A stretch of 25,982 nt of DNA from a virus (lineage: Duplodnaviria > Caudoviricetes): positions 1 through 25,982 of IMG/VR virus record IMGVR_UViG_3300030395_000058; one strand, written 5' to 3'. Shown here piece after piece: positions 221 to 14,429 of this stretch (position 1 is its first letter; the number at the start of each line of letters is the position of its first letter). The notes under the pieces were generated by a model. That model saw only the letters and a program-made list of their open reading frames with translations, had not been told where the DNA came from and did no database searches. The position numbers and the translations under genes were made by a program.

Positions 221-288
221 ATATGCAATGAGTGTCTATTGACAAACAGGATATAAGTAGTTATGGACCAAAAAATATGGGAGACATG

Positions 289-1209
289 ATGGAATCTTTT
301 AATGAAGAAAAATCAGCTGCCCTAGCCAGTGAGCAAAATCATTACGAAGATTCTAAAGAGAATTGCAGCAAAGAAGAAATAAGAAGAGATGTATTCTCTA
401 CTGCAGACGAAGCAAGAGAGAGAGCGGAAGAAATAGGTTGTGAGGGTATTCACTCTCATTCAGAAGATGGGCAAGAGATCTTCATGCCCTGCTCAACACA
501 TGATGAATATGTAGAAGCTACAGGAGAAGATGTGAAAGCAGATTCAGAGTTCCTAGAGTTTAAGTCCAGTATTAAAGCCTATGATGATGAAGAAGAAGAT
601 AAAGACTACGGCAGTTTTGAAGGATACGGATCTGTATTCGGCAACAAAGATCTTGGTAATGATGTAATAGAAACAGGAGCTTTTGCCAAATCCCTAAAAA
701 GAAAAAAACCTCATAATGTAAAACTCTTATATCAACACAAAACAGATATGCCAATCGGTGTATTTGACGAAATCAAAGAAGATGATCACGGCTTATATGT
801 AAAAGGTAGACTTGCTTTAAAAACACAAGCAGGTCAAGAAGCATACGAGCTAATGAAAATGGGTGCACTTGATGGTCTAAGTATTGGATTCAGAGTGAAC
901 CCTGAACAAGTTTCTTACGATAAACGCAACAGAAGGCGTTATATCAAAGAAGTAGATCTAATGGAAATATCCTTAGTGACCTTCCCTATGAACCCGAAGG
1001 CAACTATCAGGTCAGTGAAGGCTAAGGAAATGACCATCAGAGAGTGGGAAAATGGACTGCGAGACGCTTTCAATCTATCCCGTTCAGAAGCGAAGGTTGC
1101 TGCAGCTGCAGTGACAAAATCATTTGACGATTCTCAGCGAGAGGTTGAGACCGCAAATGCTGAATTGGTAGAAGCCATAACAAACTTAACTAAAACCTTA
1201 AAATCATAA
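289..1209 (+). CDS. HK97-family prohead (capsid maturation) protease with N-terminal Cys/His extension
   Basis: Motifs FEGYGSVFGNKD, LLYQH (catalytic His), DGLSIGF (catalytic Ser) and EISLVTFPMN. Lies directly upstream of the capsid gene. ATG 289 follows GGGAG; alternative starts are 232, 277 and 286. Confidence 0.93.
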   Translation: MESFNEEKSAALASEQNHYEDSKENCSKEEIRRDVFSTADEARERAEEIGCEGIHSHSEDGQEIFMPCSTHDEYVEATGEDVKADSEFLEFKSSIKAYDDEEEDKDYGSFEGYGSVFGNKDLGNDVIETGAFAKSLKRKKPHNVKLLYQHKTDMPIGVFDEIKEDDHGLYVKGRLALKTQAGQEAYELMKMGALDGLSIGFRVNPEQVSYDKRNRRRYIKEVDLMEISLVTFPMNPKATIRSVKAKEMTIREWENGLRDAFNLSRSEAKVAAAAVTKSFDDSQREVETANAELVEAITNLTKTLKS

Positions 1210-3369: not shown

Positions 3370-3719
3370 ATGGCAGCAGGTTATCATCATTTCATATTAG
3401 AGCAAGGAGCTACTTTTAGGCAGATTCTGACCTTAAAGGACAGCTCAGGTAATCTTATAAATCTTACTGGATATCCATCAGCAGAGATGGATCTCAGACG
3501 AAATCAAGACGATTCCTCAGAAGTAATCACCCTTACAACTGCAAATAGCAGAATAACATTAGGTGGTTCGGCAGGAACAATAACACTAGAAATATCCGCA
3601 ACAGACACCGCAGCTCTTACAGTTGGTGATGGTGTCTATGATCTTGAGCTTGTAGACAGCTCAAACAGAACTCTAAGGATCATGGAAGGGACATATTCTA
3701 TTAGAGGAAATGTAAGCAG

Positions 3720-3723
<4 letters not shown>
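3370..3723 (+). CDS. Small beta-sandwich virion protein, probable fibre base/adaptor
   Basis: EQGATF...INLTGY...[15 protein letters not shown]...GVYDLEL...RIMEG pattern, as seen in small phage proteins preceding fibre genes. ATGA overlap with the collagen gene. Confidence 0.6.
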
Positions 3724-9715
<5,992 letters not shown>

Positions 9716-9716
<1 letters not shown>

Positions 9717-10486
9717 TGGCGTATCATTCCAAATGGATTTATGAGTCCGATCTGCAAGAGCTTTTTGAGAACGGACAGTTTGAACAGGTGTTTCAAGGTA
9801 GTGAAAAGCATATAGCTTTAAATAACTATCAGTATCCAAAACTACCTAGCGGAGAAGAATTAGACTACCAAGGCAGACTATCTCACTGGGCACAAAAATT
9901 TATGGGTCATTTAAACGCTGATTTTCTAGGAGAAAGAATAGCAAAGACCGCATGTTGCATGGAAGATGGGAAAATACTATCACTCACCAATGGCTTTTAT
10001 GAACCATCTACTAAAATTTGGCATGTTTCTTCAACATTAGTTGACTATGACAAGAATGGCAAAAAGACTTTCAGTTATATAAAAGAATATTCAGAAGTCT
10101 ATATGGGATTGCCAAGATCATTAGGAGCAGAGCATGTTTGGCATTATGCGGAGCTAGGGTCTTTGTATCAATTTAGGACCGAAGCTGATGACGCACAAAA
10201 TGCTAGGAGACCACATAAGTATGCAGATAAAGGTCATATTGTTGATCTGTATGGTGTGACAAGTAATGTAGAAACTATAGATTATAGTGTTGAGCTGCCA
10301 GTTTCACGCAAAGAGGACATAGAACCTCATGCAGATGGAACAGTAGCAGAGCATGATGAACCTGCTATAACAATGCAAAGCTACACTGCTGATCTACACA
10401 TAACTAAAATACCATTCAATCCCTCATTTGATTGGACAACTATAGTATATGAGGGGACAAATAATAGGAGAATAGAAAGTGAGTAA
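9716..10486 (+). CDS. Hypothetical protein in fibre cassette
   Basis: 256 aa; TAATG overlap with the collagen stop. Globular aromatic/His-rich composition; no family recognised. Confidence 0.75.
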
Positions 10487-11381
10487 ATTAGATAATTCAC
10501 CAAGTTTAGATGGTGTAAGAGATGTTATGTATCCAACATCTTCTACCACCGCAAATATTACATCAGGCAGCACTGAAACTAATGTGAAACTAGGTGCTGA
10601 TAAAACAAGATTCCGTATGCCGATACATGGCGGTAGTGTTTTATCAAGTGGCACTGCAGTCCCTTCTAGGTATCCGTGGAGTTTTGATTCTACTACTAGC
10701 TCATACAACAGAAACAATTTTTTCCCTCATAGAGCCAATGACGCTGTTCAAATGGCGGACTTAAGATATAGTTTTAGAATGTTAGGTGATCAAAAATCTT
10801 ATACAAGCACATCAACAAAATCTTCAACTACTAGGACTTTTAATGGGTGGTGCACACTTGGTGCAATGCAGGCTATTTCACAAAGCACATCAACAAGCAG
10901 AACAGCACAAGGCAGAGGAGTATCAAACGGAGATAACTCTTATACAACTTCTGCAATGCCATTTGATACTATCAATTCTAACCATGATGGCAACAAGTGG
11001 ATTTCAGGTTTAATAAGTAAACAAGAAGGAGATATTTTTAGTGGTATAGAATATGACACTTATGTAGTTTTTGAAGGTTCAGGTGCTTCAACGAGTGACA
11101 ATGACTGGAATACTATTGTTGCTAGAGTATTTGATGATTCAACAGGAGTTTTCAATATGTCTAATGGAACAAGTCCTATGCAACCTACTCAGCGTTGGCA
11201 CTCAGGTGGTTCTGCAATGGCTACAACTGATTTTGATTTACATAGATCTGACGCTACTGTTTATACTTATGGTGGGCGTGTGGTTTATAACTGGTCAACA
11301 TTCTTTTTCACTAGCATAGGTCAACAAGGATCTAATCCAATATCTTCTACAGGAACAGGAATGATAGTAAAGTTTTTCTAA
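10479..11381 (+). CDS. Ser/Thr/Gly-rich virion protein, possible fibre-tip adhesin
   Basis: 300 aa, GTG start overlapping the previous gene. Composition is typical of virion beta-proteins, and it lies downstream of an S74-bearing fibre. Function is inferred. Confidence 0.55.
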   Translation: MSKLDNSPSLDGVRDVMYPTSSTTANITSGSTETNVKLGADKTRFRMPIHGGSVLSSGTAVPSRYPWSFDSTTSSYNRNNFFPHRANDAVQMADLRYSFRMLGDQKSYTSTSTKSSTTRTFNGWCTLGAMQAISQSTSTSRTAQGRGVSNGDNSYTTSAMPFDTINSNHDGNKWISGLISKQEGDIFSGIEYDTYVVFEGSGASTSDNDWNTIVARVFDDSTGVFNMSNGTSPMQPTQRWHSGGSAMATTDFDLHRSDATVYTYGGRVVYNWSTFFFTSIGQQGSNPISSTGTGMIVKFF

Positions 11382-11398: not shown

Positions 11399-11428
11399 GG
11401 AATGACGAAGCCAAATGGCAGGAGCATT

Positions 11429-11998
11429 ATGAATAGTCAATTTTATATGTGGGAAGGAGATCTTTCTGAAGATGAAGTAAATAGTATAATAACAGAGTGT
11501 GAATACTATAAATTAGAAGAAGCTGCTGTAGGTTATGGACCTGAAGGACGACTTAATACAACAGTCAGAAGCAGTGAAGTAAGATGGATCAATCAAGAAG
11601 ATCCTAACTCAAGATTCATTGCCAATTTAGTTTGGAATTATACGCTACAAGCGAACAGATACGCTTTTGGTGTAGATATGAGACAGATTGGTGATATTCA
11701 ATACACAACATATAACGCTGCAAATGAAGGACATTATGATTGGCATATTGATACTTTCATTGGCAACTCTTCAGCGTCAGATAGAAAGTTAAGCGTCACA
11801 ATACAGCTCTCAGACAGTGATGATTATGAGGGCGGTGATTTTATCTTAGACACTAACCAAAAACCACCTAGAGAATCTCTTAGAAAAAAAGGCACTGTCC
11901 TAGTGTTTCCATCATTTATGCGACATAAAGTAGAGCCAGTCACAAAAGGCATTAGGAAAAGCCTTGTTGCATGGATTGAAGGACCACATTGGAGATGA
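11429..11998 (+). CDS. 2OG-Fe(II) dioxygenase (prolyl-hydroxylase-like/PKHD type)
   Basis: HYDWHID (HxD), RKLSVTIQLS..DYEGG, and FPSFMRHKVEPVTKGIRKSLVAW (distal His, 2OG-binding Arg). ATG 11429 follows AGGAG; the ORF track start is 11402. Confidence 0.92.
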   Translation: MNSQFYMWEGDLSEDEVNSIITECEYYKLEEAAVGYGPEGRLNTTVRSSEVRWINQEDPNSRFIANLVWNYTLQANRYAFGVDMRQIGDIQYTTYNAANEGHYDWHIDTFIGNSSASDRKLSVTIQLSDSDDYEGGDFILDTNQKPPRESLRKKGTVLVFPSFMRHKVEPVTKGIRKSLVAWIEGPHWR

Positions 11999-12582
11999 AG
12001 TATTTTATAGAAATAGGATCTTGTGATTTTGACACCAACATAGATCTTATATCATCAGGTAATTGGCAGGGGGTTATGTGTGAACCTGCAGAGCTCTACC
12101 GCAATAATTTAGAGACATTGGTCAAAGATAATCCTTACAGATCCCATTTAGAAATTTTGCCCTATGCAATCAGTGATTTTGATGGAGAAATACTATTTGG
12201 AGAAGCTCAGGACAGCTCAGAAGGCTCTAGGAGCTTAGGTTCATGGCGTAGAGGTATCTCAAGTATCCTTGAAGAAAATCACAAGGGAGAACGCTTATTT
12301 GACCTTGCTAACAACAGACAGTTTCTTGCAAAAGAATACAAAGTTCCTTGTTGGACTCTTGATACTTTGATCAAGTTTGTAGGCTACGAACAGATAGATT
12401 ATCTCAAGATAGACACGGAAGGACATGAGATGAATATTCTTGAGAACTATTCTTGGGACATAAAGCCATGTCTAATTAAACTTGAGCACTCTCATATAGA
12501 CGATTTGTATGCAAAGAACTTCTTAGAAGCTCTAGGTTATATGGTCTATGTAGAGCAGTCAGACATATATGCAATAAGATGA
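11995..12582 (+). CDS. FkbM-family SAM-dependent methyltransferase
   Basis: FIEIGSCD, GVMCEP, PYAISDFDG, TLDTLI...IDYLKIDTEGHEMNIL. ATGA overlaps at both ends. Confidence 0.88.
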   Translation: MKYFIEIGSCDFDTNIDLISSGNWQGVMCEPAELYRNNLETLVKDNPYRSHLEILPYAISDFDGEILFGEAQDSSEGSRSLGSWRRGISSILEENHKGERLFDLANNRQFLAKEYKVPCWTLDTLIKFVGYEQIDYLKIDTEGHEMNILENYSWDIKPCLIKLEHSHIDDLYAKNFLEALGYMVYVEQSDIYAIR

Positions 12583-14429
12583 AAAAACTTGTTATATCCC
12601 TTCTCAGGAGACCTGATAGAAAACGAGAGTTCCAAAAAAATAATCTTGTTGATTATGAATACATCAAAGCATTTGACGGCAGCAACGAAATATTCAGACA
12701 TTGCAAAGGTAGAGATGGGTGGTTAGAGCCATTCAAAAAAAGACCGCTTTTGCAAAATGAAGTAGCTTGTTTCTTATCACACATCAAAGCATGGGAAAAA
12801 GTTGTAGAGCTCAATGAGCCATGTATTGTCATGGAAGATGACGCAATCATCAATGACACTTGGGACGAAGATCTATATGAATCATTCAAATATGATTTTG
12901 TATATCTACAAAGGAATGAGAATGAGCCAAATCTTGTAAGTCCTGCTGATCACGAAAAATTAGAGATCCCCTCTTATCCTTACAATATGACAGCATATAA
13001 GTTGACTCCTTTTGCAGCTAAATATCTCTTAAGCCAAGTCAACTATGAGGACATGATACCAGTAGATGAGTTTCTACCTGAGATCCTTAACAAACATTTT
13101 TTGAGAATTGCAGCTCTTAAAATTGACGCATGTAATCAACTGCCTAGGGAAATGGGTGACATAGAGCAGAGTAAACCTTTTAGAAACTACAAGATCCATG
13201 CCATGACTTGTGGAACAGATCGGAAAAAGTGCGAAAAACTAAACACCAGTGCAAAGCTGCATGGCGTAGAGATAGAGAACATAGGAACAAATGTAGTTTG
13301 GAAAGGAACAGATATGAGCTTCATGGGCGGTGGCATGAAGATCAATCTAATGAAAAAGCGTCTTGAGACTATGTATGAAGATGACATAGTTGTTTTTACT
13401 GACGCTTATGATGTTTTTTATGCAGATAATCTTGACACAATTCTTGAAAGATATGAGGACTTTGGTAAGCAGATAGTCTTTAGCGGTGAGCTTTACTGTT
13501 ATCCTGATAGCTCTTTAGCAGAGCAATTTCCTGCAGCTCCAACAGAGTTTAAATATATCAACAGCGGAACTTATGTTGGTAGAGTCTCAGAACTAAAAAA
13601 ACTATTTAACAATTATGAAATAGCAGATGATGATGATGATCAGCTGTATGTCCATAAATGCTTTCTAACGGGTTTTTTTGATATAGCTATAGATTATGAG
13701 TGCTACATATTTCAAACGAACTACAACGCAACTCAGAAGCTAGGAGAGCAACTTAATAACCCTGACACCCAATGTTGTCCATGTATCTATCATGGAAACG
13801 GGGGAGAAAGTGCAGCTCCAAAGTTTGAGTCTCTTTACAACGAGTTCTACCCCAAAACATCAGCAATGTTTATACCGCACTATAACAGAGTCAAATATTT
13901 GACAGATGACATGATTGTAGTTCCGTTTATGACTCAGACGCAGTGTGAAGATCTCATTGATATAGCTGACAAACATGGTGGGTGGGACTCTTTAGGCTAT
14001 GACAAGTTCCCTGCAAAAGAGATTAGATTAAGGCAAATGGATTCCGATCTGCAGACGGATTTGTTCATAAAATTAGATAAACATTGGGAAGAACATATTG
14101 TTCCTCTTGTTGAGAGCTATTGGAAACCTCTTCAAATGTATGGCTTAAGAGACGCATTTGTAATGAGATATTCTATGGATACTCAAATAAAATTAGCCTT
14201 ACACCATGACGCTTCTTTGGTGACTGGATCAGTAAAACTAAATGATGATTATGAAGGTGCTGATCTTTTATACCCAAGACAAGGCATTAGCAATAGAGAT
14301 ATTCCAGTAGGAAATATTCTTTTATTTGCAGGTGCAGTGACACATGGTCACGAATGTCTGCCTTTAAAAGCAGGAGTTAAGTATAGCTTGACAATATGGT
14401 CATGCAGATATATCGGTGATACAATCTAG
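12579..14429 (+). CDS. Trifunctional GT25 glycosyltransferase / PLOD-type glycosyltransferase / lysyl hydroxylase-like dioxygenase
   Basis: aa 1-~195 GT25: VISLLRRPDR, AFDG, EVACFLSH, MEDDA, PVDEFL. aa ~203-410 PLOD GT domain: WKGTDM..GGGMKI, FTDAYDV, FSGELYCYP, YINSG, DDDDDQLY, IFQ, HGNG. aa ~440-616 LH domain: FVMRY...Q..L.LHHDAS, LNDDYEG, THGHECLP (H542-D544-H591). Confidence 0.9.
   Translation: MKKLVISLLRRPDRKREFQKNNLVDYEYIKAFDGSNEIFRHCKGRDGWLEPFKKRPLLQNEVACFLSHIKAWEKVVELNEPCIVMEDDAIINDTWDEDLYESFKYDFVYLQRNENEPNLVSPADHEKLEIPSYPYNMTAYKLTPFAAKYLLSQVNYEDMIPVDEFLPEILNKHFLRIAALKIDACNQLPREMGDIEQSKPFRNYKIHAMTCGTDRKKCEKLNTSAKLHGVEIENIGTNVVWKGTDMSFMGGGMKINLMKKRLETMYEDDIVVFTDAYDVFYADNLDTILERYEDFGKQIVFSGELYCYPDSSLAEQFPAAPTEFKYINSGTYVGRVSELKKLFNNYEIADDDDDQLYVHKCFLTGFFDIAIDYECYIFQTNYNATQKLGEQLNNPDTQCCPCIYHGNGGESAAPKFESLYNEFYPKTSAMFIPHYNRVKYLTDDMIVVPFMTQTQCEDLIDIADKHGGWDSLGYDKFPAKEIRLRQMDSDLQTDLFIKLDKHWEEHIVPLVESYWKPLQMYGLRDAFVMRYSMDTQIKLALHHDASLVTGSVKLNDDYEGADLLYPRQGISNRDIPVGNILLFAGAVTHGHECLPLKAGVKYSLTIWSCRYIGDTI
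14417..14425 (+). promoter_or_regulatory. Candidate extended -10 promoter (TGaTACAAT) at end of the enzyme cassette
   Basis: In the last codons of the PLOD-like gene, 10 nt before ATG 14435, which has no obvious RBS and may be near-leaderless. Confidence 0.35.

Follow-up and report, generated by a model that had tools for sequence, protein, structure and literature searches.

Collagen lysine hydroxylation and glycosylation are documented for animals and for mimivirus, and the enzymes described there are the closest counterparts of a 616-residue protein encoded at 12579-14429 on the plus strand of a 25,982-nucleotide stretch of tailed-phage DNA (Caudoviricetes; IMG/VR record IMGVR_UViG_3300030395_000058, positions 1 to 25,982), referred to here as the window. 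L230 of Acanthamoeba polyphaga mimivirus (895 amino acids, aa) is described as having an N-terminal GLT25D1-like domain with an EDD motif at 106-108 and a C-terminal PLOD1-like region (PMC9614988; PMC4691112 agrees). Its lysyl hydroxylase (LH) domain, for which structures are available (PDB 6ax6/6ax7), uses H825, D827, H877, Y814 and R887, the last of which is required for activity (PMC5802723). By analogy with its Megavirus counterpart K7YEL3, L230 likely holds a middle PLOD-type glycosyltransferase (GT) domain (GT_PLOD) too. Two separate mimivirus proteins carry single activities: R699, with GT_PLOD and accessory domains and without LH, is a proven glucosyltransferase that needs galactosyl-hydroxylysine (Gal-Hyl) as its acceptor (PMC9546862, PMC12279948), and the GT25 protein R655 is described as putative. 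Among animal enzymes, the glucosyltransferase of LH3 (PLOD3; PDB 6fxk, 6fxr and 6wfv) needs D190, D191, E141, W145, N165 and Q192 (PMC10342707), whereas COLGALT1 (GLT25D1; PDB 9evj and 9u7h) needs E435, D437, C412, W495 and D522 and holds its Hyl-Gly acceptor by K470, Y494, W495 and E523 (PMC12003778, PMC12987934); the W495A variant is inactive, K470A is reduced, and E523 is the proposed anchor of the Hyl ε-amine (PMC12987934). By sequence and predicted fold, the phage enzyme joins GT25, PLOD-GT and LH modules in one chain from which the accessory domain is absent, and it very likely acts in some form on a collagen-like fibre encoded in the same window.

The enzyme gene is a single uninterrupted frame opposite a strand dense in stops, and with the reverse strand closed and relatives matching over the full length an artefact or a wrong reading frame was ruled out. 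Pfam GT25 (PF01755) matches aa 2-154 (E 2.3e-20, 73.8 bits against a curated cut-off of 24) and GT_PLOD matches aa 205-410 (E 1.3e-47, 162.5 bits against a cut-off of 27). The Pfam scan returned no match for the C-terminal third, which, compared with oxygenases, matches the L230 LH domain (E 7.5e-13) and LH3 (E 1.2e-8), with PiuC next at E 0.1. Sequence matches to PDB chains place LH3 at aa 220-409 (E 1.4e-25) and aa 443-604 (E 1.4e-7), COLGALT1 at aa 5-174 (E 4e-11) and the L230 LH domain at aa 441-605 (E 4e-12). An AlphaFold2 model built from 60 relatives (mean predicted local distance difference test score 91) superimposes on the C-terminal lobe of COLGALT1, residues 340-580 (Z 24.4, root mean square deviation (rmsd) 1.9, 204 residues), on the LH3 GT domain (Z 30.9, rmsd 1.6, 215 residues) and on the L230 LH domain (Z 22.3, rmsd 2.1, 171 residues). 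R699 (Z 31.0) and R655 (Z 18.7) are matched over single domains, and bacterial GT25 proteins and prolyl hydroxylases score Z ∼17 (best prolyl hydroxylase 16.8). The three-domain assignment made in an initial annotation of this DNA is thus borne out by folds superimposing at Z 22-31. The GT_PLOD domain runs to about aa 425 and the LH domain starts at about 426-435, and because 400 aligned residues of the model (200-610) span LH3 33-738, the accessory domain is missing, as that annotation had also proposed.

We placed the conserved residues by numbering the human enzymes from PDB chain alignments, with offsets anchored on residues named in the papers, and conservation was counted over 60 aligned relatives with 50-75% identity to the enzyme. 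All of the motifs quoted initially lie where they had been placed (EDD 86-88, WKGTDM 241-246, GGGMKI 250-255, FTDAYDV 273-279, FSGELYCYP 301-309, YINSGT 326-331, DDDDDQLYV 350-358, HGNG 405-408, FVMRY 527-531, LHHDAS 541-546 and THGHECLP 588-595), and the human PLOD3 motifs set beside them agree with LH3 as aligned from the PDB. Domain 1 keeps the equivalents of COLGALT1 L348, R351, C412, E435-D436-D437, Y494, D522, E523 and the lid residue Asp570; these include R11, the metal motif E86-D87-D88, Y135, D163-E164, where D163 corresponds to the base D522, and D194. In domain 2, K254, D275/D278, E304, N328, D353/D354, Q355, H405 and N407 stand for LH3 K89, D112/D115, E141, N165, D190/D191, Q192, H253 and N255, so that all of the LH3 glucosyltransferase residues listed above are kept except W145, and the DxxD motif, D190/D191, E141 and H253 are retained in 59-60 of 60 relatives. 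Domain 3 has the HxD...H iron triad (H542, D544 and H591) and the 2-oxoglutarate Tyr (Y531). Invariance in 60/60 relatives extends to E86, D87, D88, D163, D275, D278, D353, D354, H405, H542 and H591, and to Y135, R11 and L8; at E164 (COLGALT1 E523) 51 of the 60 have Glu and 8 have Asp, and lid D194 is kept in 59. The metal and catalytic residues are conserved, then, as the claim of intact motifs required, the GT25 EDD included. V587, at the position of the L230 dimer-contact Leu (L873), is nearly invariant.

Set against the known systems, the enzyme looks like a compact form of the L230-type fusion that lacks the accessory domain. It shares with L230 and its long viral relatives (see below) a GT25-like domain with EDD and a C-terminal LH domain in one chain and, as the genomic link suggests for the phage, a viral collagen as the substrate; with the long relatives it also shares the order GT25, GT_PLOD, LH. 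It differs from L230 in being ∼280 aa shorter, in lacking the accessory domain, in having Lys for Arg887, and in being carried by a tailed phage of bacteria near its own fibre gene. Relative to LH3, to which identity is ∼27%, it has an extra N-terminal GT25 domain, no accessory domain, Tyr for W145, no W148 and Lys for the 2-oxoglutarate Arg, and it has no signal for location in the endoplasmic reticulum, the bacterial cytoplasm being the presumed site. Compared with COLGALT1, it lacks the N-terminal non-catalytic lobe, and its GT25 is fused to PLOD domains, whereas COLGALT1 instead binds LH3 as a partner.

The likely substrate, which the initial annotation had overlooked, is a collagen-like fibre of 1998 aa with 470 Gly-X-Y triplets, whose gene lies upstream of the enzyme. 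The Y position is Thr in 227 and Lys in 122 of the 470; all 122 triplet lysines are at Y, X is never Lys, and Pro is found at X only. The triplets are few in kind (GPT 85, GQK 66 and GST 44), KGQKG recurs 58 times, and the runs are without Arg. The last run, the longest unbroken one at 188 triplets, contains 115 Thr, 41 Lys and 9 Asp/Glu. Because an acidic X residue follows only 26 of the 122 lysines, and Lys exceeds Asp plus Glu (122 against 78), salt bridges do not account for the fibre lysines.

To assess the association from the enzyme side, we counted only loci with at least 9 kb of upstream flank, and a collagen open reading frame (ORF) was found in 10/10 loci of a first enzyme set (one being the window's own contig), 21/27 of a second, 3/3 of a third and 4/4 cultured phages inspected. 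From the collagen side, a scan of viral contigs for the motif KGQKGQTG gave at least 142 loci in 14 of 64 parts of the data, and a control collagen motif of our own choice gave at least 124 loci in 4 of 64 parts; flanks were taken for 80 loci of each. With loci merged per contig and at least 3 kb downstream required, enzyme domains were found in 39 of 42 KGQKGQTG contigs and in none of 48 control-motif contigs, counts that include related contigs and in which the controls perhaps come from other habitats. The 39 comprise 29 full fusions, 5 with GT25 + LH and no GT_PLOD, and 5 that are split or cut, and one of the three blank contigs has an enzyme gene further off. The cassette lies within the virion structural block in siphovirus-like and T4-like phages alike. 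The link between the enzyme and the Lys-at-Y type of collagen runs both ways.

Given these data, we consider it probable, by analogy with the animal and mimivirus enzymes, that the enzyme acts on Gly-X-Lys-Gly lysines of the fibre encoded by the same phage, first hydroxylating and then glycosylating them, an activity that is predicted. The reactions would take place in the cytoplasm of the host and precede triple-helix formation by the fibre chain. Domain 3, with Fe(II), O2 and 2-oxoglutarate, would produce 5-hydroxylysine, as its homologues suggest; domain 1, as an inverting, Mn-dependent GT25 with D163 as the base, would add a first hexose from a host UDP-sugar, galactose (Gal) by analogy with COLGALT1, with glucose (Glc) also possible; and domain 2, as a retaining PLOD-type enzyme, would add the second hexose. 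The C-terminal S74 chaperone would then trimerise the chain. The product would be a sugar-coated rod, ∼400 nm long if all 470 triplets are helical and rise per residue as in collagen, on which the sugars may mask a strongly basic surface or aid stability, protease resistance or host contact.

Several observations weigh against this reading, in addition to the relatedness and provenance of the contigs counted above. In the GT25 acceptor cleft Y135 and E164 are kept, but the W495 equivalent (N136) is Asn in 60/60 relatives and the K470 equivalent (N113) is Asn in 58/60, which makes the sugar and the acceptor uncertain; domain 1 is, by sequence and modelled fold, a GT25 resembling COLGALT1 that we do not class as a COLGALT. 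In domain 2, Y308 replaces LH3 W145, the W145A variant of which is inactive, and W148 has no equivalent. The W145 position is Trp in 42 and Tyr in 18 of the 60 relatives, Tyr also occurs there in 2 of 11 animal PLODs of the comparison set, and the substitution is probably tolerated. In domain 3, the 2-oxoglutarate-binding Arg (L230 R887) is Lys (K601) in 60/60 relatives, a conservative change. All three active sites look to be under selection, two of them with family-wide changes. L230 itself is reported to act as a hydroxylase and to add Glc to Hyl, giving Glc-Hyl and not Glc-Gal-Hyl, and glucosylation was not detected on virions (PMC9614988). On the genomic side, 6 of the 27 loci of the second set have no collagen within the 10 kb examined, and 12 collagen-free records scanned whole, all of them fragments, gave a Pfam collagen match in 2. 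Five T4-like loci (L325, L352, L353, L359 and L360) have an enzyme with Tyr-Trp (YW) at the Y494-W495 position after Gly-X-Gln-rich fibres with 0-10% Lys at Y. Finally, Lys is usually missing from X in control collagens as well (median 0), and its absence there was set aside as too weak a signature of modification.

The two GT25 residues also bear on what is glycosylated. Where COLGALT1 cradles Hyl with YW, the enzyme has Tyr-Asn (YN), and a GT25 of this YN clade, which includes the window and Roseobacter phage CRP-6, could have been retuned to glycosylate Thr of Gly-X-Thr-Gly besides or instead of hydroxylysine, letting a hydroxyproline-free, Thr-rich collagen fold as a 400-nm helix. By analogy this would suit the abundance of Thr at Y described above, the last run included, and the (Gly-Pro-Thr)10 peptide is a random coil that becomes triple-helical once Thr carries β-galactose (PMC11923368). 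Among 44 enzyme representatives with a collagen, median Thr at Y is 49% for YN enzymes (33) compared with 19% for YW enzymes (10), with a nominal p of 4e-4 that is inflated because the split amounts to ∼3 changes on the tree. There are counter-examples both ways, with 5 of the 33 YN enzymes beside Thr-poor fibres (8-20%) and 3 of the 10 YW enzymes beside fibres with 37-48% Thr, and the YN motif is not established as proof of a Thr acceptor. Moreover, E164 is kept; full conservation is also seen in the LH and PLOD-GT domains, which would be left with no first sugar if the GT25 ignored Hyl; and prokaryotic collagens that lack such an enzyme commonly have Thr at Y. We regard a Thr acceptor as unlikely, though as the main rival of the lysine reading; if it holds, the enzyme would be the first collagen threonine glycosyltransferase to be identified as a fusion with a lysyl hydroxylase.

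Modification of the same lysines with a shorter or different glycan, either a single Glc on hydroxylysine as in L230 or sugars other than Gal and Glc, perhaps methylated by the FkbM protein encoded next to the enzyme, is in our view quite improbable. It draws on L230, which likely has both GT domains and is reported to add Glc only (PMC9614988), on the cleft changes N113, N136 and Y308, on variant phage cassettes with a GT4 domain in place of the PLOD-GT, and on FkbM genes, which sit directly 5' of the enzyme gene at 29 of 61 enzyme loci and at 0 of 80 control loci. However, both GT active sites are invariant in 60/60 relatives, which argues that both are used, and R699, the solved relative of the PLOD-GT domain, needs a Gal-Hyl acceptor. 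That the enzyme modifies a host surface polymer (lipopolysaccharide or capsule) or another phage protein, the fibre being adjacent through a shared variable region, is very improbable, since the naming of the GT25 family for lipopolysaccharide biosynthesis, the usual view of marine-phage glycosyltransferases, such as those of pelagimyophage host-recognition regions read as O-chain modifiers (PMC7029224), and the large-phage fragments that carry the gene with no collagen seen are set against three domains that all resemble collagen enzymes more than they do bacterial GT25 (Z 24 versus 17) or other oxygenases (22 versus 17), a two-way link to one collagen type in unrelated phage types, and only 6 loci among 185,579 prokaryotic genomes, 3 of them with collagen upstream.

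A word-indexed homologue search matched 918 protein clusters at 90% identity among 7169 candidates, some of them long or partial; the best 120 of the 918 are 50-100% identical to the enzyme, nearly all are ∼610 aa, and they have both Pfam domains. The nearest Atlas clusters are 98-100% viruses, mostly Uroviricota. The six loci from prokaryotic genomes are mostly phage-like contigs in assembled genomes (L317, L318 and L320 have collagen upstream; the rest comprise short contigs or a partial match), and a cellular origin was rejected. The family phrog_61 (PHROG 61) spans aa 1-610 of the enzyme, and 11 phage records have a full-length homologue at 40-45% identity, among them S-PRM1 (YP_010097865.1), S-CAM9 (YP_009322466.1), S-8S53/55/56 (S-PRM1, S-CAM9 and S-8S55 being Synechococcus phages), CRP-6 (QBQ72782.1) and a single-cell virus. 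In S-PRM1, S-CAM9, S-8S55 and CRP-6, the four cultured-phage regions inspected, the homologue lies downstream of a Gly-X-Lys/Thr fibre gene and carries the annotation hypothetical in three of them and 2-oxoglutarate (2OG)-Fe(II) oxygenase in one; its GT25 domain has YW in the three cyanophages, and YN and EED in CRP-6.

A profile search covered 1.84 billion representatives, and the architecture was read for the best 150. Of these, 40 are compact GT25-GT_PLOD-LH proteins, 38 are GT25-GT_PLOD proteins without an LH match, and 39 are long proteins with an insert of >150 aa before LH. The novelty attached initially to the Rosetta-stone fusion is thus overstated; this long class, and Megavirus courdo11 K7YEL3 matching one of its members end to end, rule out a unique architecture. 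The gap from GT_PLOD to LH is 4-37 aa in nearly all compact rows compared with >200 aa in the long class. Long-class proteins (∼850-990 aa) carry the accessory-domain Pfam, the insert being seen only in them, and match LH3 over its whole length, COLGALT1 at the N terminus and, with E 1e-89, the LH domain of L230. They are mostly Nucleocytoviricota in the Atlas and are found on the giant-virus contigs L311 and L313. A modelled member matches K7YEL3, a procollagen-lysine 5-dioxygenase of 889 aa, end to end (template-modelling score 0.69/0.70, E 2.4e-86), and K7YEL3 is the second match of the phage enzyme's own model (933 columns). The YW motif is present in 30/32 long-class proteins and 20/38 compact representatives, and Lys470 is kept in 28/32 of the long class, where the phage enzyme has YN and Asn; the 2-oxoglutarate position is Lys in 31/38 compact representatives and Arg in 31/32 long and 11/11 animal rows.

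A quick unrooted tree of GT_PLOD + LH was made for 71 chosen rows (38 compact, 24 long and 9 animal), a tree that cannot separate loss from gain of the accessory domain. The compact class came out on one side of a branch (Shimodaira-Hasegawa-like approximate likelihood ratio test (SH-aLRT) 94), and the animal PLODs (SH-aLRT 99) sit among the long viral proteins. The bearing of the phage fusion on the origin of animal collagen glycosylation, as suggested initially, is indirect and finds no support in that form: on these sequences the long viral class, with its giant-virus members, stands closer to animal PLOD than the compact phage proteins do. Among other family members, P0122 has a second GT25 in front, P0134 has a methyltransferase in front, P0238 combines GT_PLOD, GT25 and a halogenase D, P0200-P0244 include ∼700-aa GT25 + GT_PLOD forms without LH, and P0269 is a 1781-aa multi-glycosyltransferase.

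The three-domain fusion is, then, not new, with a giant-virus precedent that includes the characterised L230, and the compact form is known in cultured phages, mostly as hypothetical proteins. Virion glycosylation has reportedly been seen in mycobacteriophages. Glycosylation of a phage fibre of the collagen type appears to be undescribed: our literature search, which left subscription journals mostly outside its coverage and excluded supplements, found no paper on a phage PLOD/COLGALT enzyme, and a 2022 review gives phage collagens as ∼18 residues and prokaryotic collagens as mostly unmodified (PMC8968730). The window adds a siphovirus-like carrier with a very long fibre, the YN cleft and the reverse, controlled collagen-to-enzyme test. 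If hydroxylation and glycosylation of the fibre lysines hold, a large phage family (918 clusters, some long or partial) would glycosylate virion fibres of up to ∼500 triplets, with a bearing on host recognition and particle stability. A 616-aa chain evolved for the bacterial cytoplasm would also be a tool for glycosylated recombinant collagen, and the accessory domain would be shown to be dispensable.

The window holds the structural genes of a tailed phage whose head is HK97-type and whose tail genes are of the long, non-contractile type; it encodes a protease and the capsid, then head-tail genes, followed by the tail tube, tape measure, distal tail and tail tip. The virus record is estimated to be 52% complete, and the nearest cultured capsid is that of a Rhizobium phage at 51% identity. 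The cassette (Table 1) sits between the capsid and the head-tail adaptor, with several of its genes joined by overlapping stop and start codons; the enzyme ATG overlaps the FkbM stop, and the enzyme stop overlaps the start of the next gene. For a phage the fibre is of unusual length, and from its place between the capsid and head-tail genes it may belong to the neck or the head. A promoter and terminator scan gave 31 + 10 sites compared with 22.8 + 7.6 in shuffles and nothing usable.

Table 1. Coordinates of the enzyme, its domains, the fibre and the neighbouring cassette genes in the window
Feature	Position	Strand	Size or extent	Remarks
Three-domain enzyme: GT25 + PLOD-type GT + LH-type 2OG-Fe(II) oxygenase	12579..14429	+	616 aa	By Pfam, PDB matches and model
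Domain 1, GT25	12579..13190	+	aa 1-204	COLGALT1 C-lobe fold
Domain 2, PLOD GT	13191..13853	+	aa 205-425	
Domain 3, LH-type dioxygenase	13854..14426	+	aa 426-616	
Fibre-assembly/adaptor-like protein	3370..3723	+	117 aa	phrog_3304 E 4.3e-9, phrog_1084 E 4.5e-22; directly 5' of the fibre gene
Collagen-like fibre, likely substrate	3720..9716	+	1998 aa	Four Gly-X-Y runs; C-terminal S74 chaperone domain from ∼9363
Fibre Gly-X-Y runs	4533-5252, 5604-5828, 5835-7427, 7569-9260	+	470 triplets in total	
ORF without family match	9716..10486	+	256 aa	Between fibre and enzymes
ORF without family match, Ser/Thr-rich	10479..11381	+	300 aa	Between fibre and enzymes
PKHD/PiuC-like 2OG-Fe(II) oxygenase	11402..11998	+	198 aa	Companion; best PDB matches PiuC-type
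FkbM-family methyltransferase	11995..12582	+		ATG at 11995 overlaps the oxygenase stop; listed from TTG 11989

Neither of the two ORFs between the fibre and the enzymes matched a family in Pfam, PHROG or NCBIfam; relatives have poorly conserved counterparts at the equivalent position. The PKHD/PiuC-like oxygenase is present in 43 of 61 enzyme loci with at least 2 kb upstream and in 2 of 80 control loci. With a fibre that has no Pro at Y, and with best PDB matches of the PiuC type, it finds no support as a collagen prolyl 4-hydroxylase; it could act on Pro at X, on the sugar or on another target. The FkbM protein, an optional companion, is possibly a glycan O-methylase. In some relatives a small ORF is inserted in the cassette (L012:865-1272, L034:7660-8082 and L038:2562-2966), which, from its motif, may resemble cytidylyltransferases. 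The prohead protease of the window (232-1209) has an N-terminal DUF3721 segment (aa 55-90) within an acidic extension.

Very large phage fragments (L326, L327, L328, L334 and L336; 15-26% complete, 56-93 kb) carry the enzyme with the companion oxygenase; structural genes precede the enzyme, little or no collagen was seen, and a different substrate is possible there. Another phage fusion, GT4 + GT25 + LH (746-770 aa, without GT_PLOD; L047:10730-12994, L053, L101, L107 and L118), follows Lys-rich, acid-rich and mostly Thr-poor collagens of 266-475 triplets and probably places a different glycan on a fibre of this kind. A motif scan of viral contigs for L230 itself gave 0 matches. On a giant-virus contig (L056:5365-13934), a 313-triplet collagen with 60% Lys at Y adjoins a GT25 gene and a GT_PLOD + pyruvyl-transferase gene.

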